Under the pieces are notes generated by a model that saw only the letters and a list, made by a program, of their open reading frames with translations, was not told where the DNA came from and did no database searches. The translations under genes were made by a program, and so were the position numbers. Shown in pieces: positions 1 through 35,035 of a DNA stretch of 64,000 bases. Each line of letters begins with the position of its first letter. The first letter of the stretch is position 1. This DNA is from an uncultured Alphaproteobacteria bacterium (GTDB taxonomy: Bacteria > Pseudomonadota > Alphaproteobacteria > HIMB59 > GCA-002718135), in the NCBI GenBank assembly GCA_902553945.1, contig CACDMT010000001.1, positions 7,239 to 71,238 on the forward strand, read 5' to 3'.

Positions 1-591
1 AGAACAAAAATTACAAATTATTTTACATTACCATTTATGATACCTGTGTTTATTTCGCCAGTGGTAGTAGGTTTAATTTGGAAATTCATGTTTAATTATG
101 ATTTGGGAATATTAAATTATCTTCTTGAATATATAGGAGTGGGTTCAATTAATTGGTTGGGCACTCCAAGAAATGCTTTTTGGTCTGTTGTTATTATTGA
201 TACTTGGCAATGGACACCTTTTACAACTTTAATAATTAAAGCTGGATTAGATAGTGTAGATCAAACACCTATTGAGGCTGCTACTGTTGATGGAGCAAAT
301 AGGTTTCAAATTTTTAGACATGTTACTTTTCCATCAATAGCTCCAATTTTTACAGTGGCTCTACTTTTTAGAACATTAGATGCTTTTAAGGCTTTTGATA
401 TTATTTATATCGTTACAAGAGGCGGGCCTGGTGGAAGCACATACGTATTAGGATATAACATTTGGAAAACTGCATTTTATCAAAATCAACTTGGATTAGC
501 TGGCGCTATGTCTGTAATAATGATCATAATAGCAACAATTCTTGCATTTATTTTAGTTAGAATCATGAAGAACTTACTGGAGAGAGAATGA
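1..591 (+). CDS. ABC transporter permease, MalF/UgpA type (5' end cut by window edge)
   Basis: Frame is open from base 1 with no stop before the listed Met at 37. Multi-TM protein with EAA-loop-like motif IEAATVDGANRFQIFRHVTFP. ATGA overlap with the next permease. Confidence 0.85.
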   Translation, partial: RTKITNYFTLPFMIPVFISPVVVGLIWKFMFNYDLGILNYLLEYIGVGSINWLGTPRNAFWSVVIIDTWQWTPFTTLIIKAGLDSVDQTPIEAATVDGANRFQIFRHVTFPSIAPIFTVALLFRTLDAFKAFDIIYIVTRGGPGGSTYVLGYNIWKTAFYQNQLGLAGAMSVIMIIIATILAFILVRIMKNLLERE

Positions 592-1415
592 TAGGGAAGA
601 TCTCAAGAACTGAACTTATATTACGGGTTTCATTACTTGTAATATTTTTTCTTTTTTTTATGTTTCCTATATATTGGATGGTTGTAACTTCTTTAAAAAA
701 TACTGTTGATATTTTTGCCATTCCACCAAAATGGTTTTTTTCTATTTCTTTTGAAAATTACTGGTACATTATGAGTGATGACTCTGGTTTTTTAAAAAAA
801 ATATTAAACTCTGCAATAGCATCAACCCTTAATGCTTTATTTACATTATTATTAGCATTTCCAGCTGCATACAGTATGTCTAGATATAAAACTGGAGGTA
901 TAAATTTACTAATGTGGTTTTTAAGCATTAGAATGATTCCACCAATAGTTGGTGCAATACCATTGTTTATAATTTTTTCTAAGTTAGGTTTAGTTGATAC
1001 ATTTATAGCCTTGCCAATTTTATACATAATCATCAATCTTCCATTTGCTATTTGGATGATAAAATCATTTATGGATGAGATACCAAAAGAAATAGATGAA
1101 AGTGCTTATGTTGAAGGTTGCTCTACAACTGGCGTTATTTTTAAAATAATTGTACCTTTAATTAGACCAGGAATTTTTGCTACTTTAGTTTTTTGCTTTA
1201 TTATGTCATGGAATGAATTTCTTATTGCTTACATTTTTACAAGAAAAGAAGCTATTACAGCACCAGTTGGTGTAGCAAGGTTTATTACAGAAAGACAAAT
1301 ATTGTGGGGATATATAACAGCTGGTGCAACTTTAGCTTCTATCTTACCTATGATACTTTTAATAATTTTTCAAAAGAATCTAGTTAGAGGATTAACATTG
1401 GGAGCTGTAAAATAA
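588..1415 (+). CDS. ABC transporter permease, MalG/UgpE type
   Basis: 275 aa, 6 predicted TM segments, EAA-type motif DESAYVEGCSTTGVIFKIIVPLIRPG. GGAGAG precedes the ATG and the start is translationally coupled to the previous gene. Confidence 0.85.
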   Translation: MIGKISRTELILRVSLLVIFFLFFMFPIYWMVVTSLKNTVDIFAIPPKWFFSISFENYWYIMSDDSGFLKKILNSAIASTLNALFTLLLAFPAAYSMSRYKTGGINLLMWFLSIRMIPPIVGAIPLFIIFSKLGLVDTFIALPILYIIINLPFAIWMIKSFMDEIPKEIDESAYVEGCSTTGVIFKIIVPLIRPGIFATLVFCFIMSWNEFLIAYIFTRKEAITAPVGVARFITERQILWGYITAGATLASILPMILLIIFQKNLVRGLTLGAVK

Positions 1416-1459
1416 CCTTTATTTAGTTTGTATTATTTGCTTAAATTATATTTTAATCT

Positions 1460-2011
1460 CTAAATATTAGTTGATCCTACTGCTATGACATTATTCAAAT
1501 TAAAATAATTTTTCATATTATCTTTATTAATGCCACCAGTCGGTATGAAAAGAATTTCATTATAAATATCATCTAAAACTTTCAGTGACTTTGCTCCTCC
1601 ATTTTGTTCAGCATGAAAATATTTTAAAATTTTAAAACCATACTCTAATGCTGTTAAAATTTCGGATGGAGTTGATACTCCTGGTATAAAAAAAATATTA
1701 TTTTTTTTTGAAATTTCTAACATTTTTTGATTAATACCTGGTGAAACATAAAAATCAAATTTCAATTTAATTACTTCTTCAAGAACAGGCAAGGATTTTA
1801 TTGAACCAATTCCGATATTGATATTTGGATTTTGCTCCTTAAGTTTAACTGCTGTTTTCAAAGCCTCATCACTTCTTAATGTTATTTCGATTAATTTATA
1901 ACTTTCTGAAACAAGTCTATTAAATTTATTTGTGATTTGGCTTTCAGTACCCTTACCAATAATAGGTATAACTTTTTGCAACTTTATAGTTTGAATCAGT
2001 TTATTTGACAT
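1460..2011 (-). CDS. eda: 2-keto-3-deoxy-6-phosphogluconate (KDPG) / 4-hydroxy-2-oxoglutarate aldolase
   Basis: 183 aa class I aldolase-like sequence (IEITLRS, PGVSTPSEI, LKYFHA with candidate Schiff-base Lys, IPTGGI). 11-bp overlap with upstream kdgK. Confidence 0.75.
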   Translation of the reverse strand: MSNKLIQTIKLQKVIPIIGKGTESQITNKFNRLVSESYKLIEITLRSDEALKTAVKLKEQNPNINIGIGSIKSLPVLEEVIKLKFDFYVSPGINQKMLEISKKNNIFFIPGVSTPSEILTALEYGFKILKYFHAEQNGGAKSLKVLDDIYNEILFIPTGGINKDNMKNYFNLNNVIAVGSTNI

Positions 2012-2912
2012 AATTTTTTACTTTGAAATAATCTTTGTGAATAATAGCTCCTTTAAAATTTGCAACAGTTTTTCCAAGATTATGTGCCAATTTCAAACAC
2101 TCTTCAATTTTTTTATTTTTGAAATAATTAAAAAGAAAGCAAGCATTAAATGCATCTCCACATCCGGTAGTGTCTTTAACATTTTTATTTAAATAAAATT
2201 TATATTTTTCTATTTTATTCTTATTGTATATATTCACATTTCCATTACGTAATCTGAATACAATAATTTTGTTCTTAGTATTTATTGGAGTAAAATATTG
2301 AGATTTTCTTAAACCCAAATTTTTTAAATCTTCAGTTGTTATAAAAATAATATCAGATATCTGACTAAATCTAATTATAGACTGTTGTGCATTTTTTTTA
2401 TTACTCCAATTTTTTATTCGAATATTAAAATCAAAATAAATTTTTATGCCACTCTTTTTTAATAAACTTAAGAGTTTATAAAATTTATTAATACTTTTTT
2501 GATTGTAAATTGATAAAGTAATGCCTGAAAAATAAATTGCTTCATATTTAGAAACTTTATTAAACAATACATTAAGATTTACTTTTTCAAATAAACTTTT
2601 AGCAGCTGAATCAGATCTCCAATAAAAGAAATTTCTTTCACCTTTGCTATTATTTTTAATAACATATAACCCTATAGTCTTATTTTGATTATAATGAATA
2701 TTATCGGTCTTTACTTTTTCTTGTTTTAAAAAATTAACCATTTTCTTACTAAGAAGATCATTTCCAACAGAAGTAATGTAAGATGATTTAGCGCCCAATC
2801 TTGAAAGATAAATTGCCGAATTAGCAGTATCTCCTGCGTAACTAAGCTTAAAAGTATTTTCATTAATATTCGATAACTCAATCATACATTCACCTATCGA
2901 ACAGATGCGCAT
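2001..2912 (-). CDS. kdgK: 2-keto-3-deoxygluconate kinase (PfkB/ribokinase family)
   Basis: 303 aa. N-terminal GECMIEL...AGDTANSAIYLSRLG and C-terminal DTTGCGDAFNACF signatures of PfkB sugar kinases. Adjacent to eda. Confidence 0.8.
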   Translation of the reverse strand: MRICSIGECMIELSNINENTFKLSYAGDTANSAIYLSRLGAKSSYITSVGNDLLSKKMVNFLKQEKVKTDNIHYNQNKTIGLYVIKNNSKGERNFFYWRSDSAAKSLFEKVNLNVLFNKVSKYEAIYFSGITLSIYNQKSINKFYKLLSLLKKSGIKIYFDFNIRIKNWSNKKNAQQSIIRFSQISDIIFITTEDLKNLGLRKSQYFTPINTKNKIIVFRLRNGNVNIYNKNKIEKYKFYLNKNVKDTTGCGDAFNACFLFNYFKNKKIEECLKLAHNLGKTVANFKGAIIHKDYFKVKNYVK

Positions 2913-2917: not shown

Positions 2918-3760
2918 TTATTTGTATAAACTAGAAATATCTATTTCGGTAATATGCCATCTACCTAAATTTGCTGTATACATAGTATTCCCGTCTTCTG
3001 AAATTGCTATATTTGTAGGATGAGCCATTGTGGTACAAATTTTATCCTCTATAAGAATTTTAGTATTGCCTTTTGTATCAGCCATATAAATTCTAGATGG
3101 CTCATAACAACTAATAAATAAATTATTTTCTTTATCAAATGCCAAACCATCTGGAACTATAGCAATATCCTCTGTAAAAATTTCTTTTTTTCCAAAAGAG
3201 CCATCATCATTAATTGGTAATCGAGAAACACATGGGTGGAATGATTCTACAACATATAAAAAAGAACCATCAGGAGATAAACACATACCATTTGCAAAAT
3301 TAAATACCTCTTCAGAACATGGACCACCTTCTCCCGTTAATAAATCAAATCTATATAAACCAATACCTTTTTCATTAAATCCAAAACTATCAGAAACATA
3401 AACACAATTTCGATTTTGATCAATCACAGGATAATTTGGAATTTTAGGACCCTTTGCAAATTCTTTAAAAGATTTATTACTACTATCATACTTGTAAAGT
3501 GCAGCTTCTTTCATTTCACATGCAAAAACATTATTTTTATTATCGATTGCTATACCTAAGATAAATCCACCACTACTAGCTAAGCATTCCATTTTAGATT
3601 TATCTTTTTCAATTTTCATTATTTCTCCATTTTCTGTTCCACAATATACATTACCCTCATTGTCTAGAGCAACACCTTCAGGATGTTGTAATCTTGGATT
3701 AGAAAATATTCCATCAAAATAAACTTTTGCTTTATCTGAATCTAAAATTGGCTCCATCAA
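2918..3760 (-). CDS. SMP-30/gluconolactonase/LRE-like beta-propeller lactonase (copy 1)
   Basis: 280 aa with repeated propeller-blade pattern (PEGVALD, NGMCLSPDG, PDGLAFD, PTNIA). Sits in the operon with kdgK and eda. Confidence 0.7.
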   Translation of the reverse strand: MMEPILDSDKAKVYFDGIFSNPRLQHPEGVALDNEGNVYCGTENGEIMKIEKDKSKMECLASSGGFILGIAIDNKNNVFACEMKEAALYKYDSSNKSFKEFAKGPKIPNYPVIDQNRNCVYVSDSFGFNEKGIGLYRFDLLTGEGGPCSEEVFNFANGMCLSPDGSFLYVVESFHPCVSRLPINDDGSFGKKEIFTEDIAIVPDGLAFDKENNLFISCYEPSRIYMADTKGNTKILIEDKICTTMAHPTNIAISEDGNTMYTANLGRWHITEIDISSLYK

Positions 3761-3769: not shown

Positions 3770-5500
3770 TTAGTTTAAGTTTTTAATTAACTTTTTTTCT
3801 TTTCTAATTATTTCTTCAAGTAATTTTATTCTTTCTTCTCCACTTGTAAACTCTAACTTTCTAATATTAAGTGGGTCAACTATATATCTTAATACATTTA
3901 ATTGACTTGTTGTTGGCATTTTAGTTATTTTACAATCTTTTTTATATTTCACTTTGAAAGATGTATTCTGTTCAATGTCTTTTTTTGTAACTCCTTTATG
4001 AATACTAGCTACTTCTAATAAACCAGTTTTTTTATTTTTTTCAAAAATACATAAATTTGTAAATATTTTAACGTCACCTGGTTTTAAACCTGCTCTTAAT
4101 CTATCTTTATCTTTGAATAAACCTCTACCAGCACTGACATAATCTACTTTTTCAACAAAACTTAATTTAGAATGTTTAGTGACATAACCAACAAAATGTT
4201 GATGAAGATTACATACATCTGCCATGCCGCCTTGACCTGGTAATCTAAGAACTCCTCCACTTTTTTTCTTAATCTCAATATTATTAACATCTCCATATTT
4301 ATCAATTTGTGCCGCTCCTATAACTTCGTGAGTTATCTGACCATTTTGATAATAAATACTATATGAGTCATCACCTCCCCAATAATTTATACATGTTTCT
4401 CTATCTAAAACTTCACTAAAAGATAAAGTCATTGGTCTGAAACTCACATCATGATGTCCATATGTCATCGTTGTAAGTATTAATTTAGGAGCGTGAAGTT
4501 TTTTTGCGAGAAAATAAGAAACGTTTGCTAATGGTGATACTGCACCTGAACTGCATAAGCTATTATTATTATATTCATTTGCTAATGCAAAGGCCATTAT
4601 TTCATCACTTGTTATTTTTTCTTTAGATTTTTTATTCTTGTAATTTTTAGCTAGATAGGTTTTAAAAAATTTAGAACCTAATTTGTTTGACTTAGTTACA
4701 AATTGTTTATTTTTTTTAAAACTTGTTCCAATTTTAAGTGGTGTCTTTAAAAAAGCATTTTTAAGATCTTCGTAATCAGTTATATAGTAAGGCACTGAGG
4801 AAGTTGGATACGCACCGTAAGGTACATGGGCAATTGCTTTGATAAAGTTTTTAGAAATAAGACTTCCTTTCTTTTCACGTGCTAAAATATCTCTAGATAC
4901 AACTTCATCAACTGTTACAATAACTTGCTTGCTAGCACCAGCCATAATAGTGTCTAAAGCACGAGGACCTAGAATTTCTACATTTCCATCTTCATCAGCT
5001 CTACTTGCATGAAGGAGAAAATTATCAATTTTTAAAGATGGGACAATTGCAAACTGATTTTTTGAAATAGGGTCTTTAAACTTTTTACAAAATTTTGTTT
5101 TTATGGGTAAATCAGATCCCCAGGGGTATTGAAATATTTCAGAGTCTATATTTTGTTGTCCTGCACGTAATGCCTTAATTAATCCAAGAGCAGACCAATC
5201 TATAACTTCGATTTTTTTATTTTCACAAGTTTTTCTAAACAAAGGTGCAAGCCCAAAAATATCTAAGCTTGAAAAACAAATTTGAATTTTTTTAACTGCA
5301 TTTTTTTGTAGAAAAAGTTCTAAAGCTAAACCTCCTGACCAGCTAATAAATTCTAAATTTTTTGGTTTATTTTTTAATAAATTATTTATCAATGCAATTG
5401 GCAATCTCGCAAAGTGATGACCTCCTATTCCTATAGAAGTATTATTTTTAATAAGACCTGATAGATGATTTAAAGATTTAAATTTAGATGAAAGTTTCAT
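3770..5500 (-). CDS. Fused class I CoA-transferase (GctA-like N-half + GctB-like C-half)
   Basis: 576 aa. The N-half resembles glutaconate CoA-transferase subunit A (IGIGGHHFARLP; HASRADEDGNVEILG; AHVPYGAYPTS). The C-half carries a PGQGGMAD-type beta-subunit region. Zero-bp junction with the upstream gene. Confidence 0.7.
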   Translation of the reverse strand: MKLSSKFKSLNHLSGLIKNNTSIGIGGHHFARLPIALINNLLKNKPKNLEFISWSGGLALELFLQKNAVKKIQICFSSLDIFGLAPLFRKTCENKKIEVIDWSALGLIKALRAGQQNIDSEIFQYPWGSDLPIKTKFCKKFKDPISKNQFAIVPSLKIDNFLLHASRADEDGNVEILGPRALDTIMAGASKQVIVTVDEVVSRDILAREKKGSLISKNFIKAIAHVPYGAYPTSSVPYYITDYEDLKNAFLKTPLKIGTSFKKNKQFVTKSNKLGSKFFKTYLAKNYKNKKSKEKITSDEIMAFALANEYNNNSLCSSGAVSPLANVSYFLAKKLHAPKLILTTMTYGHHDVSFRPMTLSFSEVLDRETCINYWGGDDSYSIYYQNGQITHEVIGAAQIDKYGDVNNIEIKKKSGGVLRLPGQGGMADVCNLHQHFVGYVTKHSKLSFVEKVDYVSAGRGLFKDKDRLRAGLKPGDVKIFTNLCIFEKNKKTGLLEVASIHKGVTKKDIEQNTSFKVKYKKDCKITKMPTTSQLNVLRYIVDPLNIRKLEFTSGEERIKLLEEIIRKEKKLIKNLN

Positions 5501-6520
5501 TTATAGATTGCTTACAGAAAATGAATAATCTGAATAAAGGGGTTTATCTTTAAAAAGTTTTATACTAGTTGCTACATTTCTTTTAGATATCGGATTTTCT
5601 TTATTCAAAGAAATATGCGTTGATAGTCCAAAAGCAGATGAAATTGGTTCAAAACCAACTGTTACATGATTGCTATTCCATGGATATTCTGTTCTGCCTT
5701 TATTACTAACCCACATAAGCACTGAAGAAAAATGATCAGGATTCCATGAAAAATTAAATTTGTAATTATCTTCAAAATTCTCAAAAGACATATTGCCATC
5801 AATACCACAAAGCTGAAAGAGGTCTTCAAAGTTTCCTTCAAATGGTGGTTTTGAGATATCTATGATATTTCCATTAAATCCTTCAACTTTTTCTAATGTA
5901 GAAAATTCTTTCCCTACAGCTCCTAATGTTTTATCTTTTAAAACTAATCCTGGATAGTTAAGTCCAAATTTAAAATTACCTGGATTTATTTTTATTTTTG
6001 ACATTTTTTTTGGTATGCGTAGCATCGGATGCAAACCAATTGGTAATTCACAATCCTCTTTTACATGTATTTGAAGTGTGCAAAATATTTTATTAGGCTT
6101 GTCATCCTGAACTTGAATAGTTCTTACTAGAAAATTAACTAAATCGTTTTCAGGATAATGTATTTTAAATTCTAGTTTATTTGATTCTTTTTCTATTAAT
6201 TCCCAATTTTTATTTGAGCTATAACCATGTGGTTCATTTACAATGTATGGTTCTTCTGAATATGATTTTTCCCATTCTTTAGTAAGTGCTTCAACAGGAG
6301 AATTAATCCCAAAAGGAACACATGGGAATTCCCCTTTAAGGTTTTGAAGTATACCTGGAAGTGAATTAAATTCTTCTGAATTATCTTCAAGCCACTCAGG
6401 CTCATGAAGGGGTTTAATTTTTTTTCCGTCAAGATTGAATATGGGAATCATTTTACATCCCAATGTATCAACTTCAACTTCTCCACCTTTCCAATTAAGT
6501 AAAATTTTTTCAGCCATCAA
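5501..6520 (-). CDS. Divergent galactose-mutarotase-fold (aldose-1-epimerase-like) protein
   Basis: 339 aa. Spaced motifs PHGYSSNKNWEL, GLHPMLR and VGFEPISS resemble the HG..W / HP.F / EP pattern of aldose epimerases. Assignment is by eye only. Confidence 0.4.
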   Translation of the reverse strand: MMAEKILLNWKGGEVEVDTLGCKMIPIFNLDGKKIKPLHEPEWLEDNSEEFNSLPGILQNLKGEFPCVPFGINSPVEALTKEWEKSYSEEPYIVNEPHGYSSNKNWELIEKESNKLEFKIHYPENDLVNFLVRTIQVQDDKPNKIFCTLQIHVKEDCELPIGLHPMLRIPKKMSKIKINPGNFKFGLNYPGLVLKDKTLGAVGKEFSTLEKVEGFNGNIIDISKPPFEGNFEDLFQLCGIDGNMSFENFEDNYKFNFSWNPDHFSSVLMWVSNKGRTEYPWNSNHVTVGFEPISSAFGLSTHISLNKENPISKRNVATSIKLFKDKPLYSDYSFSVSNL

Positions 6521-6522: not shown

Positions 6523-7755
6523 TTACCTATCTACAGTTATTATTTTTTCTTCTTCATATTGTTTAATTTCATCAATAGAATAACCGAATTCTTGCAATAT
6601 TTCATAGCTATGCTCTCCCACTAAAGGAGCTGGCTTAGAAATTTTAGGAGGAGTTTCACTCATCTTAGCTGCTGGAGATACAGTACGAACAGTTCCATAT
6701 TTTTCATGAGTATAGCTAGTAAACATTTTCATATGTTGAACTTGAGGATCATCTAATACTTCTACATGTTTATAAACAGGAGCTACCCAAGCACCTTTGT
6801 CTAATAAGGTATTAAGAAGATATTCACTTGTATACTCTATCGTTCTTTTTTCTATATGGTTAAATATTTCATCTCTTTTAGTAAATTGTATTTGAGATCC
6901 AAATGCTCCTTTAGGGCCATCATCCTTATAATTAGTAGATATAGTTTCATCTTCTAATACCTCAGCTAAAAGTTCGAGTGAGGCAATTGCGATACTTATA
7001 TATTTATCTTTGGTTTTATAAACTCCAAAAGGTGCTGCAGTTCCTGGATGACCAATACCAGAGTTTGCTCTTTCAAATTCTTGGTTTAGGTTAAGCACGG
7101 CAACAAATTCTTGAAGCTCATGTTGCAAAAGAGCACTTAATAAATCAATTTGTATTTCCTGACCTTTCCCAGTTCTGTCCCTATAGTAAACTGCAGACAA
7201 AATACTAATTACCATATTATAAGATCCTAATTGATCTGCCATTCCGGCTCCTACTGTTACTGGAGGTCCATCAGCTCTTCCAGTATTATAGGTAAGTCCT
7301 GACATACCTTGTATTAAAATATCTTGCCCCGGTCTCTTCGCATATGGACCTGTTCTTCCATAGCCAGATCCATTACAATAAATTATTTTTGGATTTATTT
7401 TTTTCAAATCTTCAAATCCAAAACCAAGTTTGCTCATGACTCCCGGTCTGAAATTTTGAATTACAACATCACAATCTTTAACCATCTTATATAAAATATC
7501 TTTACCTTTAGTACTTTTCATATCTATCGCTAAAGATCTTTTATTTCTATTCCATGATAAAAATGTAGCTGCTTGTGTTCCTCCTACTTTTTTATTGAAA
7601 AAGTGCCAGCGCCTATAATCATCTCCTACTTCAGCTCTTTCAATTTTGTAAATGGTTGCTCCATAATCTCCTAAAATTTGTGTAGCAAATGGTCCAGCCA
7701 AAAGATGGCTAAAATCTAAAACCTTCAATCCACTTAATGCTGATTTATCTTCCAT
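6523..7755 (-). CDS. Class III CoA-transferase (CaiB/BaiF family)
   Basis: 410 aa. Typical N-terminus LSGLKVLDFSHLLAGPFATQILGDYGATIYKIE and QNFRPGVMSKLG motif. Confidence 0.85.
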   Translation of the reverse strand: MEDKSALSGLKVLDFSHLLAGPFATQILGDYGATIYKIERAEVGDDYRRWHFFNKKVGGTQAATFLSWNRNKRSLAIDMKSTKGKDILYKMVKDCDVVIQNFRPGVMSKLGFGFEDLKKINPKIIYCNGSGYGRTGPYAKRPGQDILIQGMSGLTYNTGRADGPPVTVGAGMADQLGSYNMVISILSAVYYRDRTGKGQEIQIDLLSALLQHELQEFVAVLNLNQEFERANSGIGHPGTAAPFGVYKTKDKYISIAIASLELLAEVLEDETISTNYKDDGPKGAFGSQIQFTKRDEIFNHIEKRTIEYTSEYLLNTLLDKGAWVAPVYKHVEVLDDPQVQHMKMFTSYTHEKYGTVRTVSPAAKMSETPPKISKPAPLVGEHSYEILQEFGYSIDEIKQYEEEKIITVDR

Positions 7756-9532: not shown

Positions 9533-9533
9533 T

Positions 9534-11958: not shown

Positions 11959-11981
11959 TGCATTTGAAATTTATGTTTAAA

Positions 11982-12008
11982 TTAAGCCTCCATAATAAGG
12001 AGGCTTAA
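11982..12008 (-). promoter_or_regulatory. Intra-operon stem-loop immediately after the binding-protein gene (attenuator / mRNA stabiliser candidate)
   Basis: Perfect 10-bp inverted repeat ttaagcctcc (11982-11991) / ggaggcttaa (11999-12008) with a 7-nt loop. It lies between the SBP stop (12021) and the permease start (11958). Only a weak U-run follows on the minus strand. Confidence 0.5.
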
Positions 12009-23254: not shown

Positions 23255-23257
23255 GTC

Positions 23258-26982: not shown

Positions 26983-27854
26983 TAAGATATTTTATAATTA
27001 CTATAAGGGATTTTCAATCCTTTATAATTTGTTTTTATTATTAAACTTTGACCTGAATATTTATATTTTTTTTGTAAAATTTTAGAAGTACCCAATTTTG
27101 CAGTTGTAATAAATAGATAATTTAACTCTTTACCAAAAAATGTGATGCTAGTTATATTATATGCTGGTAATTTTATTTCTTTATCAATTTTTTTAGTTTT
27201 TAAATCAATTCTTGTAATTTTAGCACCAGACCAATGTGCTACCCACAATCCATTATTATTATCAAGAGCTATTCCATCTGGTATTCCTTGATTTTTTTTA
27301 TACTTAATCAAAATATTTTTTTTGTTAGTTTTTAAATTATAAGTTAAAATTTTTGAACTTAACGAGTCCGAAAAATATAAATTTTTTTCAAATTTATCTA
27401 ATGCCGGTCCATTTGATACTTTAAATCCCCTGTCAATAACTATAAATTTTTTCTTATATAAATATCCAAAATATCCTAAATTTTTATTTTCTTTAAGATG
27501 AGACAAACCGATCCACAATTTTTTATCTGAAATTAAACCATCATTGTAAGAAATATTTTTTAATTCATTACTTTTTCTAATATCAATAAATTTTTTTACT
27601 TTTTTAGATTTTCTATTAAATATATATAATCCATCAAAAGCACTTATTATAAATAATCCATTATTATGTGGGTATACATTTCCTAGAGGCTTTGGTAGAT
27701 CAAGTTTTTGTTGAGTTAATTTTCTATTTCCAATTGAATAAAAAAAAATTGATGGTTTTAAAAGATCTAAAAAAACAATCTCATTAGTTTTGTAAAGATA
27801 AAAACCACTCTCTCCTAAAATAGTATTGGACTCAACAGCATCAAAATCAAACAT
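26982..27854 (-). CDS. SMP-30/gluconolactonase/LRE-like lactonase (copy 2, extremely AT-rich)
   Basis: 290 aa. SNGPALD, PDGIALDNNNGLWVAHWSGAKITRID propeller-blade motifs. Confidence 0.65.
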   Translation of the reverse strand: MFDFDAVESNTILGESGFYLYKTNEIVFLDLLKPSIFFYSIGNRKLTQQKLDLPKPLGNVYPHNNGLFIISAFDGLYIFNRKSKKVKKFIDIRKSNELKNISYNDGLISDKKLWIGLSHLKENKNLGYFGYLYKKKFIVIDRGFKVSNGPALDKFEKNLYFSDSLSSKILTYNLKTNKKNILIKYKKNQGIPDGIALDNNNGLWVAHWSGAKITRIDLKTKKIDKEIKLPAYNITSITFFGKELNYLFITTAKLGTSKILQKKYKYSGQSLIIKTNYKGLKIPYSNYKIS

Positions 27855-27863: not shown

Positions 27864-27902
27864 TAAAAAAATAAAAAGAGGGCGTTAAATAAGCGCCCTC
27901 TT
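27864..27902 (-). terminator. Rho-independent terminator/attenuator after the PotD-like binding-protein gene
   Basis: 9-bp GC-rich stem aagagggcg (27876-27884) / cgccctctt (27894-27902) with a 9-nt loop. On the minus strand it is followed by TTTTTATTTTTTT (27864-27875). Confidence 0.65.
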
Positions 27903-27918: not shown

Positions 27919-28926
27919 TTAATTAGAAGCTTTTACTTCGTTCCAAACTCTATTACGCCATTCGAAATCCTCAGCTGGTTGTAGCCAATTTAATCTACCT
28001 GCATAATCTAAGCCAGGAGACTCATGAGTAACAGTTCCATATCCATATCTCTCATTCATTACTTCTTGAGTAGATTTTTCTATGAAAAAATTTGCCCAAG
28101 CGTGTGCAAGTTCTTCATCAGCACCTGCAGTCATTGCCCAAGTATCAAGCCATCCAATTCCACCTTCTTTAGGAATAATGTATTTAACATTATGTCCCAT
28201 ATCTCTTAGAGCCACTTCCTGGAATTCACCCATAGAGAACATTAGTGAAATTCCTCCACTATCCCATATTTGATTACCTTCATCAAAACCAGCAAAGTAA
28301 GTAACTACTAATTTTTTTTGATCAATCAGCGTTTGTTTTACATTTTCCATTTCAGCTTCAGATAAGTTATAAGGATTGTTCATACCAAGGTATATTGCTG
28401 TATTAACAATATTATTATTAGTATCATCTAATACAATCATTTTACCTGCATTTGCTGGATCGTGCATTACAGACCATGAGTCAACTCCGCCTTCACCAAA
28501 TTCATCAACATCATAAATTAGTCCTAATGAACCCCAAGAAATAGGAACACCATAATAACCGCCATCAATTTCAACTTCTTTTACGTTTTGAAAAGCTGAC
28601 ATAAGACCACTAAAATTACTTAACTTACTTTTGTCATAAGGTTTTAGTAATCCTGCTCCATGATATCGTGGAAATAAACTTGTATCAATTGATACTAAAT
28701 CAAAATCTTCACCCTTACTTGCTTGTGTTAAAGCAAATAATTCATCAACACTTCCAACATATTTAACTTTAACTTTTGCATCATATTTAGCTTCAAATTC
28801 ATCTATCCATTCTTGTTCAGCATATCCTTCAAAACACCCAAGGCTTAATTCTCTTGCAGCGCTTGCAGAAAATGCAAACGAAAAAATAAAGATAAATGAT
28901 AAAATTGAATAAATAAATTTTCTCAT
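27919..28926 (-). CDS. Periplasmic binding protein of the PotD/PotF (polyamine-type) family
   Basis: 335 aa with signal peptide MRKFIYSILSFIFIFSFAFSASA. GYYGVPISWGSLGLIYD and GWLDTWAM segments typical of spermidine/putrescine-type SBPs. Confidence 0.8.
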   Translation of the reverse strand: MRKFIYSILSFIFIFSFAFSASAARELSLGCFEGYAEQEWIDEFEAKYDAKVKVKYVGSVDELFALTQASKGEDFDLVSIDTSLFPRYHGAGLLKPYDKSKLSNFSGLMSAFQNVKEVEIDGGYYGVPISWGSLGLIYDVDEFGEGGVDSWSVMHDPANAGKMIVLDDTNNNIVNTAIYLGMNNPYNLSEAEMENVKQTLIDQKKLVVTYFAGFDEGNQIWDSGGISLMFSMGEFQEVALRDMGHNVKYIIPKEGGIGWLDTWAMTAGADEELAHAWANFFIEKSTQEVMNERYGYGTVTHESPGLDYAGRLNWLQPAEDFEWRNRVWNEVKASN

Positions 28927-29113
28927 TTTCCCTCCATATATAAATTTTTATAATTAAAGCAGTAATTTAAATTGAAGTCAAATTAACAATCGTTGATTTA
29001 GATATAAAATATATATTTATTCATAAAATTAGGCAATAATTGGCTTTTTTAAGTTTATTTAAAAAATATTAATCTATAAATTATGATTAGTATTAAAATT
29101 CAATATAAATATT

Positions 29114-30181
29114 ATGAGTGAAATTTTAGAGTTAAAAAATGTTTCAAAACAATATGGAGAGACAAAAGTTTTAGATAATATTAATTTTAAAATTAATAAT
29201 AATGAATTCTTTACAATTTTAGGATCAAGCGGATCAGGTAAGTCTACAATAATACGAATGATAGGTGGTTTTACAAAACCTTCGGCAGGTGAAATAATTT
29301 ATGAGAATAATATTATTAACGATGAACCAATTTTTAATAGACCATTTAACACAGTATTTCAAGATTACGCATTATTTCCAAATATGAATGTTTTTGATAA
29401 TGTTGGATTTGGACTTAAAATAAAAAATATAAATAAAGGTGAGATAGAAAAAAAAGTCTTAGATGTTTTAGCAGTTGTAGGCTTAGAAAATTTTTCAAAA
29501 AGAATGCCTCAAGAATTATCAGGAGGCCAACAACAACGAGTTGCACTGGCAAGAGCTATTATTTGTGAACCTAAAATTATTTTATTAGATGAACCCCTTG
29601 GTGCTCTTGATGCAGAATTACGAAAACAAATGCAATTATTTTTAAAAGAAATTCAGAAAAAAATTCAAATTACTTTTATATTTATTACTCATGATCAAGA
29701 AGAGGCTATATTTTTATCAGATAGAATAGCCGTCCTAAATAAACATAAATTTGAACAAATAGGTTCGCCAAAAGATTTATACTATTCACCACAAACAACC
29801 TATATGGCAAAATTTTTTGGAGAATGTAATTTAATTAATTGTAGTGTCATTAATGAAGATTCAAAATCTGTAAAAGTTAGCTCTAAATTTGGTAATTTTG
29901 TTATACCTAACAACGCTACTCTAAATCGTGATTTAGATTTTGTTTATGGAATTAGGCCTGAAGAAGTAAAACTAGTAGCTAAAAATGAAAATAGTATGAG
30001 GGTCAAAATTAGAGATATAAGCTTTAAAGGATCTACATCAACAATTAATGCAACAAATGAAAATGAAGATGCGTTATTAAAGATTCAGAATATTAGTTCA
30101 AATATTTCACAATCATTATCTGTAGGCACCTATATTGATGTTGAATTTAATACTGAATTTGGAAGTATTTTTACTGAATGA
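29114..30181 (+). CDS. ABC transporter ATP-binding protein (PotA type)
   Basis: 355 aa. Walker A GSSGSGKST, LSGGQQQR, ILLDEPLG, C-terminal TOBE-like domain. Confidence 0.9.
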   Translation: MSEILELKNVSKQYGETKVLDNINFKINNNEFFTILGSSGSGKSTIIRMIGGFTKPSAGEIIYENNIINDEPIFNRPFNTVFQDYALFPNMNVFDNVGFGLKIKNINKGEIEKKVLDVLAVVGLENFSKRMPQELSGGQQQRVALARAIICEPKIILLDEPLGALDAELRKQMQLFLKEIQKKIQITFIFITHDQEEAIFLSDRIAVLNKHKFEQIGSPKDLYYSPQTTYMAKFFGECNLINCSVINEDSKSVKVSSKFGNFVIPNNATLNRDLDFVYGIRPEEVKLVAKNENSMRVKIRDISFKGSTSTINATNENEDALLKIQNISSNISQSLSVGTYIDVEFNTEFGSIFTE

Positions 30182-31029
30182 ATTCTATATCAAATTATTT
30201 TAATACATCTATCTGGACAATAGTTAGTTTTGTCTTAGTTATTTTTTTAATTCTAATACCTCTTGCTTCTTTTTTATCTTATTCTTTTTTCACAGTTGAT
30301 GGGACAGATATTATTCATGAATTTAGTTTATTTAATTTTAAAGAATTTTTTGTTGATGAAATATATATACGTACTTTCGTAAGAACTATTTTTCTTGCAA
30401 TTATTGTAATGACATGTTGCATCATACTTGGCTACCCTGTTGCATTTTTTTTAGCTAGATATGCCGGTAGATATAAGTATGCCATTCTTCTGATGCTCAT
30501 AATTCCACTTTTTATGAGCTACATAATTAAAATTTACATGATGAGATCGATATTGGGTTATTCTGGACTAATCAATAAAGTTCTAGCAATGGCAGGTTTA
30601 ATTGATAAACCACTAGAATTTTTTTTATGGAATCAAAATTCAGTTATTATAACACTTGTTATAATTTTATTGCCTTTAATAATTATTCCAACTTTTACTT
30701 CTTTGGATAAAATTCCACAAAATATAGTTGAGGCATCTTTTGATTTAGGGTGTAAACCCTTTCAAGCTTTTAAATATATTATATTGCCAATTAGTTTCCC
30801 TGGTCTTGTTGTAGGAAGTATTTTTGTATTTATTTTAGCTCTTGGTGATTTCGTAACACCTCAGTTAGTTGGTGGTACATCAGGATTTACTTATGGTAAA
30901 ATAATATACAGTAATTTTGGGATGGCATTTAATTGGCCATTTGGTGCAGCACTTGCTAGTGTTTTATTATTTGTGTCTGTAATTATTATTTTATTAACTA
31001 ATTATCTAACTAAAAGATTGAACAAATGA
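30178..31029 (+). CDS. ABC transporter permease (PotB type)
   Basis: 283 aa, 6 TM segments, EAA-type loop EASFDLGCKPFQAFKYIILPISFPG. ATGA overlap on both sides. Confidence 0.85.
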   Translation: MNSISNYFNTSIWTIVSFVLVIFLILIPLASFLSYSFFTVDGTDIIHEFSLFNFKEFFVDEIYIRTFVRTIFLAIIVMTCCIILGYPVAFFLARYAGRYKYAILLMLIIPLFMSYIIKIYMMRSILGYSGLINKVLAMAGLIDKPLEFFLWNQNSVIITLVIILLPLIIIPTFTSLDKIPQNIVEASFDLGCKPFQAFKYIILPISFPGLVVGSIFVFILALGDFVTPQLVGGTSGFTYGKIIYSNFGMAFNWPFGAALASVLLFVSVIIILLTNYLTKRLNK

Positions 31030-31826
31030 CCAGATCAGAAAATTACACTAAATATCTTTTAGCTTGTTTAACTGGTTTAATAGTAGCTGCATTATATGCA
31101 CCAATAGTTTTAACAATCTTTTATTCTTTTTATAAATCAAGAAAAGGAAAGGTGGACTGGGGTTCTTTTTCTTATGAGCCATATACAAAATTAATATTTG
31201 AAAGACAGATATTAGAATCCTTAATGAACTCAATTTATGTGGGTGTGGTCACAGTAATTTGTTCTGTAATTATTGGTTTTTATTTTGCAAACTATTACCA
31301 TACGAGTAAAAGCAAAATGAAAGAATTTTTGCAGTTTATTATCTTTCTTCCCTTTTTATTACCACCAATTATAACAGGTTTATCACTCCTGATATTTTTT
31401 AGAGAAATAAATCTTCCAAGATCCTTAAATACTGTTGTAATTGGTCATACAATATTTGTTCTAGCAATAGTATTTAAAATTATTTTAAATAAGTTAGAAA
31501 CTCTTAAACCTTCTTTAATGGAGTCTGCGTACGATTTAGGAGCAAGTAAATGGCAGGCATTTTATTATGTTTTACTTCCAAACATTAAATTATCTCTAAT
31601 AATAGCAGGACTTTTAGCATTTACTATTTCATTAGATGAAACTTTAATCACATTATTCTTGATTGGAAATGACACTACTTGGCCAATAAAACTCTGGGCA
31701 AAAATGAGGGTAGGATTTTCTAAACAAGTCAATGCTTCAGTAACATTAATATTGATACTAACATCATTATTAGTATTATTAATAGCAAGTATAATATCAA
31801 GATCTGAAAGAAAAATAATGTATTGA
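31026..31826 (+). CDS. ABC transporter permease (PotC type)
   Basis: 266 aa, EAA-type loop ESAYDLGASKWQAFYYVLLPNIK. Confidence 0.85.
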   Translation: MTRSENYTKYLLACLTGLIVAALYAPIVLTIFYSFYKSRKGKVDWGSFSYEPYTKLIFERQILESLMNSIYVGVVTVICSVIIGFYFANYYHTSKSKMKEFLQFIIFLPFLLPPIITGLSLLIFFREINLPRSLNTVVIGHTIFVLAIVFKIILNKLETLKPSLMESAYDLGASKWQAFYYVLLPNIKLSLIIAGLLAFTISLDETLITLFLIGNDTTWPIKLWAKMRVGFSKQVNASVTLILILTSLLVLLIASIISRSERKIMY

Positions 31827-31830: not shown

Positions 31831-32604
31831 ATGGATAAAAGATTATTAAATAAAAAAATAGTTGTTACTGGTGGCTCTAGAGGAATAGGGGCCGGCATTG
31901 TGAAAAGACTTTTTGATGAAGGTGCTGAAGTAATCATAGCCGATATTAAAGAGGATTTAGCTAAAAAATTAATTGAAGATTTAGATACAAAAAAAGTAAC
32001 ATTCTTTCAAACTGACTTATCAGAAGAAAATGAAATAATTAAACTAATTGATTTTACTAAAAGTCACTGGGGCTCAATGGATATTTTGATTAATAATGCT
32101 GGTATAGAAGATGGTTTTATGTTGTCAGATCAATCGTATGAAAAATATAGAAAAACTATGAAAGTAAATTTAGATGCTCCATTTTTATGTTCAAAATACT
32201 CTCTCCCATTATTAGAAAAATCAAAGTCAGCAAGAATAATAATGATTTCATCTATTCAAGGTGTAAGAGGATACAAAGGCAATATTTCTTATAATACAGC
32301 TAAAGGTGGTCTTATAAATATGACCAGAGTACTCGCAGTAGAATTAGCAGAAAAAAATATACTTGTTAATTCAGTTGCTCCAGGTTTTATAAATACGCCA
32401 ATGTCTGTAATGAAAGATGGAAATTTAGAGTGGGATACAGATTGGTTTAAGGATGTATATCTTAAATATGGAAAATTGCCTATGGGTAGATATGGTCATC
32501 CAGATGACATTGCAGGTGCTGTCTATTTCTTTTGCTCAGAGGATAGTAAATATGTAACAGGTCAGACTTTACTTGTTGATGGAGGTGTTTCAGTTACTTT
32601 TTAA
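31831..32604 (+). CDS. Short-chain dehydrogenase/reductase (SDR)
   Basis: 257 aa. TGGSRGIGAG, NNAG, YNTAKGG (YxxxK). Starts 4 bp after the potC-like stop. Confidence 0.85.
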   Translation: MDKRLLNKKIVVTGGSRGIGAGIVKRLFDEGAEVIIADIKEDLAKKLIEDLDTKKVTFFQTDLSEENEIIKLIDFTKSHWGSMDILINNAGIEDGFMLSDQSYEKYRKTMKVNLDAPFLCSKYSLPLLEKSKSARIIMISSIQGVRGYKGNISYNTAKGGLINMTRVLAVELAEKNILVNSVAPGFINTPMSVMKDGNLEWDTDWFKDVYLKYGKLPMGRYGHPDDIAGAVYFFCSEDSKYVTGQTLLVDGGVSVTF

Positions 32605-32606
32605 AT

Positions 32607-33743
32607 ATGAAAATTACAAAAATAGAAGTTCATGTAGTTGGCCCTGAAGATGAGCGCTACACTTGGTCAGAAGATATTGAAGAAGTATATCAAAGTAACA
32701 CTTTAATTAAAATTTATACTGATGAAGATATTATAGGAGAGGCAGCTGTATGGAATGCAACATATTTTGAGTATGATAAGTATACCGCTGAGTCACTTAG
32801 ACATTTACTGCCAATATTAATTGGAAAGGATCCTCTTAACAGAGAAGAAATACTTTATGAAATAAGACCTAGGGTTTTTCCTCAGCCACCTGGTGCGCAA
32901 GCTTTAATTGATTGTGCGTTATGGGATATTATCGGAAAAAAAAGCAAAACTCCAATTTATAAAATTCTTGGAGGAAGAAGAGATAAAATTAAATCATATG
33001 CAAGTACAGTAATGTATGACACTATTGATCAATACTTAAAGGTAGTAGAAGATATGAAAGAAAAAGGTTTTTCTGCTGTTAAGTTTCATACCTATTGTAT
33101 TCCAAAAAAAGATTTAGAGTTAGCTGAAGCTGCAAGGAAAGCATTTCCTTCTATGTCTTTTATGATTGATGCTGAAAATAATTATGACTTAGAAAGTTCA
33201 ATTTATGTAGCAAAAAAATTAGAAAAACTTGACTTTACATGGTTTGAAGCTCCTTTACCGGATTATGATTTTGCGGGATATAAAAAAATTACAGATAGTG
33301 TTGGAATAAAAGTTATTCCATCAGGCAATTGGGTTCTTGACCTTCAAAGATTTTCAGAAGCAATTAATAATAAAGTTTGGTCGGCAACAAGAACTGATAT
33401 GGCAATGATGGGAGGAATAACTAATTGTAAAAAAGCTATGGATTTATCAGCGGCCGGAGGCCTTGATTGTGAAATTATGTCATGGGGATACACATTAGTA
33501 TCTGTTGCAAATTTACATGTTATGTTATCATCCGATAATTGCACATATTATGAACAACCTTTACCATACAATAATTTTGAGTTTGGTATGAAAGATGTTT
33601 TAAGAACAAATAAAGATGGGTATATCTATGCTCCAACTAAACCTGGCTTAGGTATGGAAATTGATTGGGAAAAAATGAATGAAAAAATTATTCATTCAAT
33701 TTATTGTAATGATGGAAGAAATATTAGCAATGTTCATTCATGA
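32607..33743 (+). CDS. Enolase-superfamily (MR/MLE family) protein, paralog 3, with atypical active-site positions
   Basis: 378 aa. ALWDIIGKKSKTPIYKILGG, MIDAENNY and WFEAPLP ligand contexts are conserved. The third-ligand context reads PSGNW and the His context reads EIMSW (see finding). Confidence 0.75.
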   Translation: MKITKIEVHVVGPEDERYTWSEDIEEVYQSNTLIKIYTDEDIIGEAAVWNATYFEYDKYTAESLRHLLPILIGKDPLNREEILYEIRPRVFPQPPGAQALIDCALWDIIGKKSKTPIYKILGGRRDKIKSYASTVMYDTIDQYLKVVEDMKEKGFSAVKFHTYCIPKKDLELAEAARKAFPSMSFMIDAENNYDLESSIYVAKKLEKLDFTWFEAPLPDYDFAGYKKITDSVGIKVIPSGNWVLDLQRFSEAINNKVWSATRTDMAMMGGITNCKKAMDLSAAGGLDCEIMSWGYTLVSVANLHVMLSSDNCTYYEQPLPYNNFEFGMKDVLRTNKDGYIYAPTKPGLGMEIDWEKMNEKIIHSIYCNDGRNISNVHS

Positions 33744-33778
33744 TTTAATAATATTTTAAATTGTTCTAATACTATTTT

Positions 33779-34186
33779 ATGAAAATAATTATGATTTATT
33801 TATTTATATGCTTTCTTTTAATGACTAATTATAGTTATTCATCAAATCATATAAAAAATTATAAATGTAAAATAAATTTTAGTACTAGTATAAAAAACAT
33901 ATCCCCTCTTGAAATGTCAGCTCCAAAAGAAATTAAAATTAAATATAACTCGGAAACAAATAGTTTAGTTGAATATATTTGGAATTATGAGAGTGTTATT
34001 AATGACTTTGAATTAATGAATAATAAAAGTAATTCAGAATTTATTGAAATAGCTCGTAAAGGATTTAAAAAAACTTTATCTAATAAAGATATAAGAAATG
34101 GAATATATTTTAAGTTATATTTTAATGATTTAAAAGCTAATCTAAGTAAGCAATTTATTAGACCTGTTAACTATAAATGTTTCTAG
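33779..34186 (+). CDS. Small secreted hypothetical protein
   Basis: 135 aa with a predicted signal peptide (MKIIMIYLFICFLLMTNYSYS). No family recognised. Two Cys only, each within an NYKC motif. Confidence 0.4.
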   Translation: MKIIMIYLFICFLLMTNYSYSSNHIKNYKCKINFSTSIKNISPLEMSAPKEIKIKYNSETNSLVEYIWNYESVINDFELMNNKSNSEFIEIARKGFKKTLSNKDIRNGIYFKLYFNDLKANLSKQFIRPVNYKCF

Positions 34187-34192
34187 TTTTTA

Positions 34193-35035
34193 TTAAATTT
34201 TGTAAATTCTCTTTGCATTCATATTCGCAATTTTAGACGACTCATCAGATGAAAGGTTTGATAAAATTTTTTTTGTTACAATTAGCCATTCGGGTAAACC
34301 CTTACCAAGATCAACTACAGGCCAATCACTTCCCCAAACTATTCTGTTAGGTCCAAAACTATCTAATACATGATCAACATAAGGCTTAATAGTTTCGTAA
34401 GATGAGGTGCCTGGTGCACAATAAGCCATTAATCCAGATAGTTTACAAGTTACATGATCTAATTCTGAAAGAGCATTAATATCTTTTTTCCAGTCATCAA
34501 TATTACCATTTGCAATTGCAGGGACTCCACAATGATTTAAAACTAAATCCATCTCATCACATGATTTGGACAATTCATAAGCAATTTTTAGTTGACCAGC
34601 ATGATAGCACAAATCAAAAGGTTTTCCTTCTTTGCCAATTTTTTTTACATTTTCCTTAAAAATGCTTTGTTGAGATAGTTCATCAGGCATAACATGAAGT
34701 ACTCTTCTATAACCTACTACTCCAAGTGATTTGGATTCATCTAGCCACTGATCAAATTCATTACTTTCCTCTGGCCTAATAGATAAAATTAATCCTTTTA
34801 TTCCATTTTCTGATTTAGACATTAGTGAATTAATAAATTTTGATTCATTTTTATAATCAGGATCATCAACAGCACACTCCATAAATAATGTTCCCATTAT
34901 ATTAAAGTCCTTTGTTAAATCTTGATAATTTTCGACTGTGAAGTCAGAACTTGACAGAGCAGGTATATCTTTAGCCCAACTATAATTTGCTTCTTTTCTA
35001 TATATTAAGTGCTGATGTGTATCTAATAATTCCAT
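34193..35035 (-). CDS. Amidohydrolase_2 family metal-dependent hydrolase (L-fucono/rhamnono-lactonase-like)
   Basis: 280 aa. N-terminal DTHQHL metal motif, LNHCG, and WGSDWPV C-terminal motif typical of amidohydrolase_2 sugar lactonases. Confidence 0.7.
   Translation of the reverse strand: MELLDTHQHLIYRKEANYSWAKDIPALSSSDFTVENYQDLTKDFNIMGTLFMECAVDDPDYKNESKFINSLMSKSENGIKGLILSIRPEESNEFDQWLDESKSLGVVGYRRVLHVMPDELSQQSIFKENVKKIGKEGKPFDLCYHAGQLKIAYELSKSCDEMDLVLNHCGVPAIANGNIDDWKKDINALSELDHVTCKLSGLMAYCAPGTSSYETIKPYVDHVLDSFGPNRIVWGSDWPVVDLGKGLPEWLIVTKKILSNLSSDESSKIANMNAKRIYKI

Follow-up and report, generated by a model that had tools for sequence, protein, structure and literature searches.

We analysed a 64-kb stretch of contig CACDMT010000001.1 from an uncultured alphaproteobacterium (the whole stretch is called the window here), in which positions 1 to ~37.2 kb are filled with genes for carbohydrate uptake and oxidation and are referred to below as the island. 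Domains were annotated with Pfam in every open reading frame (ORF) of at least 80 aa, DNA-binding and helix-turn-helix (HTH) domains being accepted at E ≤ 1e-3, and enzymes were assigned using the bit-score cut-offs of the NCBIfam equivalog and subfamily models. The island is 97.6% coding, with a largest gap of 187 bp, and from ~37.2 kb onward the Pfam content changes to housekeeping genes. The guanine plus cytosine (GC) content of the window is ~0.29 with no compositional break (0.295 in the island vs 0.279 in the core; tetranucleotide correlations of 0.96-0.99), and its sole Rfam match is a tRNA-Leu at 41183. From the names of the homologues of the O-acetylhomoserine sulfhydrylase (‘Pelagibacteraceae bacterium’ at 88% identity and ‘MarineAlpha5_Bin6’ at 91%), the genome is assigned to SAR11 at the family level, i.e. 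to the Pelagibacteraceae. The homologue names, the GC content and the coding density all agree with the original prediction, made from the sequence alone, of a streamlined SAR11-like genome whose sugar genes give way to housekeeping genes at ~37 kb.

The window enters the island part-way, as two ATP-binding cassette (ABC) permeases (1-1415, forward strand; BPD_transp_1) form the tail of a first importer whose other parts fall outside the window on the left; the two permeases share 89-90% identity with the permease pair found behind a 476-aa SBP_bac_1 protein in loci L069 and L070. A 13-gene operon on the reverse strand follows, which begins at rbsB with a type 2 carbohydrate uptake transporter (CUT2) importer comprising substrate-binding protein (SBP), permease, double ATPase and permease (8579-13040; Peripla_BP_4, two BPD_transp_2 and two ABC_tran domains). 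The SBP has a signal peptide and resembles ribose- and YtfQ-type binding proteins. Behind the importer the operon encodes a sugar 1-dehydrogenase-like short-chain dehydrogenase/reductase (SDR1, 7761-8561; adh_short) that exceeds the NCBIfam glucose 1-dehydrogenase subfamily cut-off (232.5 vs 215 bits), a family III coenzyme A (CoA)-transferase (6523-7755; CoA_transf_3, 337 bits) that scores ~230 bits against succinate-glutarate and formyl-CoA transferases, under their cut-offs, a divergent protein (5501-6520), a 576-aa fused alpha/beta protein of the glutaconate CoA-transferase family (3770-5500; CoA_trans), an SMP-30/gluconolactonase-like lactonase (SGL1, 2918-3760; SGL), a PfkB-family, KdgK-like kinase (2001-2912) and finally a 2-keto-3-deoxy-6-phosphogluconate (KDPG)/2-keto-4-hydroxyglutarate (KHG) aldolase (Eda, 1460-2011). 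The top NCBIfam match of the kinase is the 2-dehydro-3-deoxygluconokinase equivalog (226 bits vs a cut-off of 400), and the aldolase scores 142 bits against Pfam Aldolase and 153.3 against NCBIfam eda, which has a cut-off of 156.05.

Two proteins of this operon needed closer inspection. The 5501-6520 protein itself matched nothing in Pfam or NCBIfam, although Aldose_epim was matched by 6 of its 26 homologues, and an AlphaFold (AF2) model built from the homologue alignment (predicted local distance difference test score 94.6) matched aldose 1-epimerases in Foldseek with E 1.5e-15; the protein is therefore modeled with a galactose-mutarotase fold. The top PDB matches of the fused CoA_trans protein were 5mzw, 6con/6co6 and 1poi, each at ~50 bits, some of which we take to be the non-transferase members AibAB and IpdAB. 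Family I CoA-transferases carry a catalytic glutamate in an (S)ENG motif of the beta half; this motif was absent from the beta half of the fused protein (residues 296-576) when checked by eye without structural alignment, and the protein, as read from its sequence, may not be a transferase.

To the right of the operon the genes are arranged in short units on alternating strands. A protein of the NAD-dependent epimerase/dehydratase family and a MetE-like (Meth_synt_2) protein form a pair on the forward strand (13209-15232, the latter at 14195-15232), which is followed on the reverse strand by a Zn-dependent alcohol/polyol dehydrogenase (Zn-ADH, 15233-16228; ADH_N and ADH_zinc_N) and by a CUT1-type importer (16237-21602; SBP, two permeases and a MalK-type ATPase) with an embedded Gfo/Idh/MocA oxidoreductase. 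The relatives of the CUT1 SBP (SBP_bac_1) are MalE3/CUT1 binding proteins, and its true start is likely to be at 21560. The next forward unit (21737-23689) encodes a RhaM-family mutarotase, the enolase-superfamily enzyme Eno1 (from 22079) and RidA (23258-23689); Eno1 is under every NCBIfam equivalog cut-off and has 5olc as its top PDB match (151 bits). Then come a DgaE-family, pyridoxal phosphate (PLP)-dependent ammonia-lyase-like enzyme with many marine homologues (23681-24889, reverse strand; 278 bits to NCBIfam selA_rel/DgaE vs a cut-off of 385), a second enolase-superfamily enzyme, Eno2 (24944-26113, forward; top PDB match 3sjn, 236 bits), and, on the reverse strand, an aldose 1-epimerase with a second SMP-30 lactonase, SGL2 (26110-27854, SGL2 at 26982; Aldose_epim and SGL). 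Importer 4 consists of a reverse-strand SBP of the PotD/PotF family (27919-28926; SBP_bac_8 and SBP_bac_6) and a forward-strand PotA-type ATPase (TOBE_2) with two permeases (29114-31826). It is followed on the forward strand by SDR2 and the enolase-superfamily enzyme Eno3 (31831-33743, Eno3 at 32607) and by a small secreted protein of 135 aa with an N-terminal signal peptide (33779-34186), and on the reverse strand by an Amidohydro_2 lactonase-like enzyme (34193-35035).

SDR2, like SDR1, exceeds the glucose 1-dehydrogenase subfamily cut-off. The Amidohydro_2 protein scores 106.6 bits against the L-fucono-1,5-lactonase equivalog (cut-off 400). The top PDB match of Eno3 is 4jhm (289 bits), followed by 1rvk/4hcd (135 bits), presumably the galactarolactone cycloisomerase of Agrobacterium, which is partnered by an isomerase of the amidohydrolase family; the position of Eno3 near Amidohydro_2 resembles this cycloisomerase/isomerase pairing, which is suggestive only. 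The secreted protein matched no Pfam family, has homologues of 64-70% identity in three loci (L017, L022 and L034) and, like the 5501-6520 protein, gave nothing useful when its sequence was searched directly against the PDB. Pfam thus reproduced the predicted inventory, i.e. parts of four ABC importers (1-1415, 8579-13040, 16237-21560 and 27919-31826), three enolase-superfamily paralogs, two SMP-30 lactonases, one Amidohydro_2 protein, two SDRs, a Gfo/Idh/MocA oxidoreductase, a Zn-ADH, an NAD-epimerase, a single KdgK/Eda pair and, among three mutarotase-type proteins, RhaM and Aldose_epim; the third of these is the protein at 5501-6520, assigned from its homologues and AlphaFold/Foldseek. The genes beyond that inventory are those for the fused glutaconate CoA-transferase-family protein, the family III CoA-transferase, the MetE-like protein, RidA, the DgaE-family PLP enzyme and the small secreted protein.

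The right-hand anchor of the island is galE-galT-sufE (37215-39641, forward strand). SufE was used to scan species-representative genomes, which yielded 63 loci, all from single-cell genomes (single amplified genomes, SAGs) labelled uncultured Alphaproteobacteria, against which the window proteins were searched with tblastn; counts for the left flank use the 52 loci that extend 5 kb or more to the left of galE. The anchor was syntenic in 63 of 63 loci, and the right flank (VTT, DsbB, COQ7, HNH, hydrolases, CysMet, AMP-ligase and FadB) was syntenic in every sufficiently long locus. The left flank was a mosaic, with 12 distinct arrangements among the 52 loci, as would be expected from the suggestion in the original prediction that 1-35 kb is variable and the sequence from 37 kb onward conserved. 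Amidohydro_2 abutted galE in 22 of the 52, and behind it were 11 different combinations of island genes, drawn from RhaM, Eno1, the NAD-epimerase/MetE-like pair, the CUT1 importer, the PotD-type importer, SDR2, Eno3 and the small secreted protein. No island gene was present in 29 of the 52, which had an unrelated cassette instead. In this alternative cassette (L002 1-7851 and 28 further SAG loci) the order is SDR, FAA-hydrolase, FMN-dependent dehydrogenase, Rieske protein, 2-hydroxyacid dehydrogenase, thiamine pyrophosphate (TPP) enzyme and 2-hydroxyacid dehydrogenase; its trio of SDR, FAH-family (fumarylacetoacetate hydrolase) protein and lactate-oxidase-like enzyme is reminiscent of the lower half of the oxidative route for 6-deoxy sugars. 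At the island edge itself, a gene for a tetratricopeptide repeat (TPR) protein with a family 41 glycosyltransferase (GT41) domain (35083-37155, reverse strand; GC 0.226) was variable, being found in a first tblastn pass in 5 loci only (L022, L037, L047, L048 and L063) at 41-57% identity.

Three further observations concern the anchor and the right flank. The galE/galT genes of the window (37215-39228) share just 67-77% identity with their counterparts in all 63 SAG loci, compared with 88-97% for CysMet, COQ7 and AMP-ligase nearby, and they look like divergent alleles beside the hot spot. A second, smaller variable spot lies between sufE and the VTT-domain gene (39642-41280), where the window has an EamA transporter, a rhodanese and the tRNA-Leu; the sufE-to-VTT distance ranges from ~0.6 to 9 kb in the SAG loci, and EamA or rhodanese occurs in few of them (L017, L061 and L062). 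The gene for a 184-aa HNH endonuclease (42891-43445) is at the same position in all long SAG loci with 84-89% identity, and behaves as a core gene and not as a mobile-element remnant.

The arrangement within the island recurs elsewhere, and the island is not a one-off: metagenome-assembled genome (MAG) and metagenome contigs (L064 and L075-L079) share the gene order of the window at 63-97% aa identity. The recurrence was seen in the gene neighbourhoods of homologues of two proteins, the mutarotase-fold protein and the DgaE-like enzyme. L064 has the same 13-gene operon, from rbsB through Eda, together with the divergent NAD-epimerase/MetE-like pair, while L075 (an NCBI MAG), L076, L077 and L078 follow the window in the order SDR2, importer 4, Aldose_epim, Eno2, DgaE, RidA, Eno1, RhaM, importer 3, MetE-like/NAD-epimerase and rbsB. 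The differences from the window are single-gene insertions or deletions of Zn-ADH, SGL2 and Eno1 and a flipped order of Gfo and the CUT1 SBP. Zn-ADH is found only in the window, being absent from the otherwise syntenic L064 and L075-L078, and SGL2 is present in L076 and absent from L075. The GC content is ~0.30 throughout the L064 and L075-L078 contigs, and none of them contains an HTH gene. The NAD-epimerase/MetE-like pair is 81-91% identical in L064, L075 and L077, and a paralogous version (47-59%) is present in 19 of the 52 SAG loci.

Identity was uneven within the 13-gene operon. Between the window and L064 it was 94% for rbsB and 91% for CoA_trans, and 63%, 62% and 68% for SDR1, CoA_transf_3 and KdgK respectively; against L066/L069 this pattern was reversed. 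Given also the native composition of the island and the absence of integrase, transposase or other mobility domains (Pfam) from the ORFs of the window, this points to cassette swapping by homologous recombination among SAR11 relatives, and not by mobile elements. A recently acquired foreign mobile element, transferred horizontally from a copiotroph, would also be large, catabolic and variable between genomes, and a tRNA-Leu does lie ~4 kb to the right. However, the island shares its GC and tetranucleotide usage with the core, integrases, transposases and flanking repeats are absent, homologues of 77-98% identity are found on SAR11-like contigs of GC 0.30, and the tRNA is beyond the galE-galT-sufE anchor, at the separate variable spot. 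We regard a foreign origin as very improbable; with native composition and such close SAR11-like homologues, horizontal transfer from a foreign donor is largely refuted.

Two features of the cassettes and their relatives were unexpected. The NAD-epimerase-family gene is invariably accompanied by its 345-aa MetE-like (Meth_synt_2) partner inside sugar cassettes, where a methionine-synthase-like enzyme would not be anticipated. In L064 (15053-20276) and L072 (6567-11969) the Eda end is followed by a gene of the N-acetylglucosamine (GlcNAc) 2-epimerase family, an 886-aa alpha-mannosidase of glycoside hydrolase family 38 (GH38) and a further CUT1 binding protein; glycoside hydrolases of such size are unusual in SAR11.

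We consider it likely that the region from 1 to ~37.2 kb forms the right-hand portion of a flexible genomic island in a SAR11 bacterium (Pelagibacteraceae), composed of exchangeable cassettes that together serve a presumed sugar-oxidation route and are expressed from promoters. The island would occupy a hot spot of recombination that borders the conserved galE-galT-sufE genes on their left, with its ~10 short transcription units acting as the exchangeable cassettes, and homologous recombination among SAR11 relatives would lead to cassette holdings that vary by lineage. Each cassette would combine a binding-protein-dependent importer with mutarotases, NAD(P) dehydrogenases, lactonases and enolase-superfamily dehydratases or cycloisomerases. 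In the predicted route the sugar would be oxidised at C1, the resulting lactone hydrolysed to the sugar acid, and this acid dehydrated to a 2-keto-3-deoxy acid, which the single KdgK/Eda pair would convert to pyruvate and glyceraldehyde-3-phosphate. The DgaE-family PLP lyase and RidA, beside the PotD-family importer, would add the deamination of an amino-sugar acid, also yielding ammonium, and the set of SDR, family III CoA-transferase, mutarotase-fold protein, GctAB-like protein and lactonase would contribute a CoA-dependent step.

The importers bear on whether all of these substrates are sugars. Importers 2 and 3 have SBPs of sugar-type families; importer 4 does not, as all of its relatives are of the PotD/PotF type. 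Its PDB matches are exclusively polyamine-binding proteins (≤65 bits), and importer 4, DgaE and RidA together suggest, from their sequences, that the substrate is an amino-sugar acid, or possibly not a sugar compound at all. A sizeable share of the island could be devoted to amines, amino acids or small organic acids, taken up by the PotD-family importer and processed by DgaE/RidA and the CoA-transferase cassette. Such a role would explain the deaminating chemistry of the DgaE-family lyase and RidA and the presence of two CoA-transferase-fold proteins in the main operon, and the enolase superfamily also handles amino-acid derivatives (weak matches to cis-3-hydroxy-L-proline dehydratase and dipeptide epimerases were seen). 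However, these genes are interleaved in conserved order with mutarotases, SMP-30 lactonases and glucose-1-dehydrogenase-type SDRs, the characterised DgaE works on a sugar acid, and the top enolase-superfamily matches are acid-sugar dehydratases and cycloisomerases. A non-sugar role for these parts is possible, if on the unlikely side.

The CoA-transferase genes belong to a five-gene core (SDR, family III CoA-transferase, mutarotase-fold protein, fused GctAB-like protein and SMP-30 lactonase) that is always found behind the same CUT2 importer, with 57-98% identity across SAR11-like lineages, and we treat this core as a candidate for a CoA-dependent step. A bolder proposal is that it constitutes an undescribed CoA-dependent branch of sugar-acid metabolism, in which the acid would be converted to a CoA thioester and then epimerised, cleaved or decarboxylated, within an island that has no dedicated transcription factor; we hold this to be quite doubtful. 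A literature search found nothing relevant on a pathway joining both CoA-transferase families with a gluconolactonase, which is not proof of absence.

The predicted lack of an HTH transcription factor was borne out and extended, since Pfam detected neither an HTH nor any other DNA-binding domain among the ORFs of the 64-kb window. The only ORFs without a family are those for the mutarotase-fold protein and the secreted 135-aa protein, and the coding density and small gaps of the island leave no room for an unannotated regulator. When IclR and RpiR were searched with tblastn against the window and the 63 SAG loci, no homologue was found. Rfam gave no credible riboswitch or leader in either gathering or permissive mode, two matches at E 0.3-0.8 being dismissed. 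Scans for sigma-70 promoters and terminators gave no excess over shuffled expectation, with the exception of hairpins 3′ of SBP genes. All three SBP genes are trailed by stable GC-rich hairpins amid AT-rich DNA (z from -4.4 to -7.1), each on the reverse strand: one directly 3′ of the CUT2 SBP gene and within the operon (11980-12010; -17.8 kcal/mol, z -5.9), one directly 3′ of the CUT1 SBP gene (20168-20197; -19.7 kcal/mol, z -7.1) and a terminator-like hairpin with a U-run 3′ of the PotD-family SBP gene (27876-27902; -15.4 kcal/mol, z -4.4). These hairpins probably set the ratio of binding protein to membrane components; they would raise it, and would be the sole visible tuning of an expression that is most likely promoter-driven, presumably constitutive and free of a local transcription factor. 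The original prediction regarded the lack of a regulator over 35 kb of catabolic operons as unusual. This view is not supported, as transcription factors are reportedly scarce in SAR11 (PMC13198564) and few regulators are typical of the group (PMC3448164).

Several observations weigh against this interpretation of the region as a promoter-driven flexible island for sugar oxidation, and they concern (i) its extent, (ii) the proposed route and (iii) its expression. As regards extent, the left boundary lies beyond the window, and the SAG loci extend just 8-10 kb left of galE, so that distal island genes are outside their reach and their absence there is uninformative. As regards the route, no substrate-specific NCBIfam cut-off was passed among the enolases, lactonases, dehydrogenases, kinase and aldolase, and Eno1-3 were all far under the cut-offs for galactonate, gluconate, mannonate and arabinonate dehydratases. 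The KdgK/Eda operon has no dehydratase of its own and has instead two CoA-transferase-fold genes, while L069-L071 have the same CoA core and cassette without KdgK/Eda; the link to a single exit is therefore not obligatory. The original prediction had several parallel oxidative feeders converging on one 2-keto-3-deoxygluconate (KDG) exit. This scheme is reasonable at the level of enzyme families only: no enolase, lactonase or kinase reached an equivalog cut-off, importer 4 is of the PotD family, and DgaE with RidA points to the deamination of an amino-sugar acid.

As regards expression, the divergent promoter region upstream of rbsB (13041-13208) contains a ~75-nt block (within 13078-13182) that hardly varies among the window, L064, L075 and L077, where the flanking proteins are merely 81-94% identical. 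The block includes a 9-7-9 palindrome (13078-13120), ATATGTAAA-N7-TTTACATAT, that overlaps a -35-like TTTACA, and GTTTATATGTAA occurs a second time, inverted, at a distance of 48 nt. In addition, L066-L068 (GC 0.30, SAR11-like) have the same operon at 54-87% identity, followed by a UxuA mannonate dehydratase and an IclR-family gene (L066 15584-16423, also in L067 and L068) that lies beyond Eda, two genes from it. In a Mesorhizobium locus (L065) the homologue of the mutarotase-fold protein is likewise found amid IclR and RpiR regulators. The conserved block and the IclR gene would both be accounted for if the island were controlled in trans, e.g. by an IclR/KdgR-type repressor acting on conserved operators such as the rbsB palindrome, a possibility that bears on expression alone and could hold together with the island model. 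However, the 12-mer GTTTATATGTAA is confined to one intergenic region, its 3 matches in the whole window being not above the 1.6 expected by chance. A search for an operator motif shared among the island promoter regions found none, the RhaM/CUT1 SBP and PotD-family SBP/potA intergenic regions show little conservation, and the window and the 63 SAG loci have no IclR or RpiR homologue. The block may be no more than a promoter, or a trans-encoded factor may use it as an operator. Control in trans is thus rather unlikely, and since the IclR gene accompanies the L066-L068 variant of the operon, the regulator-free state is a feature of the window variant and its closest relatives and not an anomaly needing special explanation.

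The enzyme families of the island are those of known oxidative sugar pathways, non- or semi-phosphorylative, in copiotrophs, i.e. the routes for L-fucose and L-rhamnose via fuconolactonase and FucD, the Udh-Gli-Gci route for galacturonate in A. tumefaciens, and the 3,6-anhydrogalactose routes. The likeness includes the position of Eno3 near Amidohydro_2 and of RhaM beside an enolase-superfamily dehydratase. The differences are that scores are far under the equivalog thresholds, that the FAH-family 2,4-diketo-3-deoxy-L-fuconate hydrolase of the fucose route is absent (Pfam found no FAA_hydrolase domain in the window), and that copiotroph clusters have LacI, GntR or IclR regulators, as in Mesorhizobium L065, whereas the island has none. 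The DgaE-like enzyme is of the same PLP family as Salmonella DgaE (D-glucosaminate-6-phosphate ammonia-lyase), as its score against the family model indicates, and the neighbouring RidA would handle the enamine/imine product. Unlike the Salmonella enzyme it is under both the family and the equivalog cut-offs, has no phosphotransferase system (PTS) or DgaF partner, and stands in a context of ABC importer, lactonase, mutarotase and SDR.

Within SAR11, hypervariable regions were reportedly described by Wilhelm in 2007, and flexible islands with transporter-rich cargo and recombinational turnover have been documented since (Grote 2012, PMC3448164; Molina-Pardines et al. 2025, PMC11796062; and, for an Arctic SAR11 glycine-betaine island, PMC12421898). 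The island resembles these in its position beside conserved core genes on the right-hand side, its content differing among close relatives, its native composition, its lack of mobility genes and its presumed recombination, and it is likewise dominated by transporters and enzymes of unknown specificity. It differs from the classical hypervariable region 2 (HVR2), which has surface polysaccharide genes by rRNA/tRNA, in that its cargo is almost purely for carbohydrate uptake and oxidation, and at ≥35 kb, i.e. at least that size, it is unusually large for a SAR11 metabolic island. A variable ‘glycolysis operon’ with a variant Entner-Doudoroff (ED) route is also known in SAR11 (Schwalbach et al. 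2010, as far as it is cited in PMC3448164 and PMC12636525). That operon is similarly a variable carbohydrate operon in which an ABC sugar importer feeds the KDPG-aldolase step, but here there are three to four importers and ~25 enzymes, and entry would be via KDG kinase and not via phosphogluconate dehydratase.

The closest precedent in gene content is the coastal genus ‘Undatipelagibacter’, which has the largest SAR11 genomes and for which a fucono-lactonase-type route, ED genes and an frcABC importer have been reported (Tucker et al., ISME J 2025, PMC12636525). By gene content alone the island is like this genus, with its fucono-lactonase-type amidohydrolase, ED genes (KdgK/Eda) and frcABC-type CUT2 importer. 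A large sugar-use island is present, as predicted, but at the level of gene content the marked sugar expansion had already been published for the coastal genus (PMC12636525). That study gives gene presence, and not island anatomy, the galE position, cassette mosaicism or the lack of a regulator. SAR11 flexible islands, the paucity of regulators and the sugar expansion in a coastal genus are therefore established. What appears to be new is the anatomy, i.e. a galE-anchored carbohydrate island of at least 35 kb, its mosaicism over 52 species-level genomes, its regulator-free layout with SBP hairpins and its conserved CoA-transferase core.

SAR11, the most abundant of the ocean's heterotrophs, is generally portrayed as specialised on small, simple molecules. 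The results indicate that in some lineages of this group three to four additional importers and ~25 enzymes of carbohydrate oxidation are gathered beside galE in a single exchangeable block that lacks a regulator, and the island provides a concrete, testable case of niche partitioning via cassette swapping. Its three binding proteins, its three enolase-superfamily enzymes and its CoA-dependent cassette are candidates for substrate discovery. As the general phenomena were already known, the picture of SAR11 is refined by these findings and not changed.

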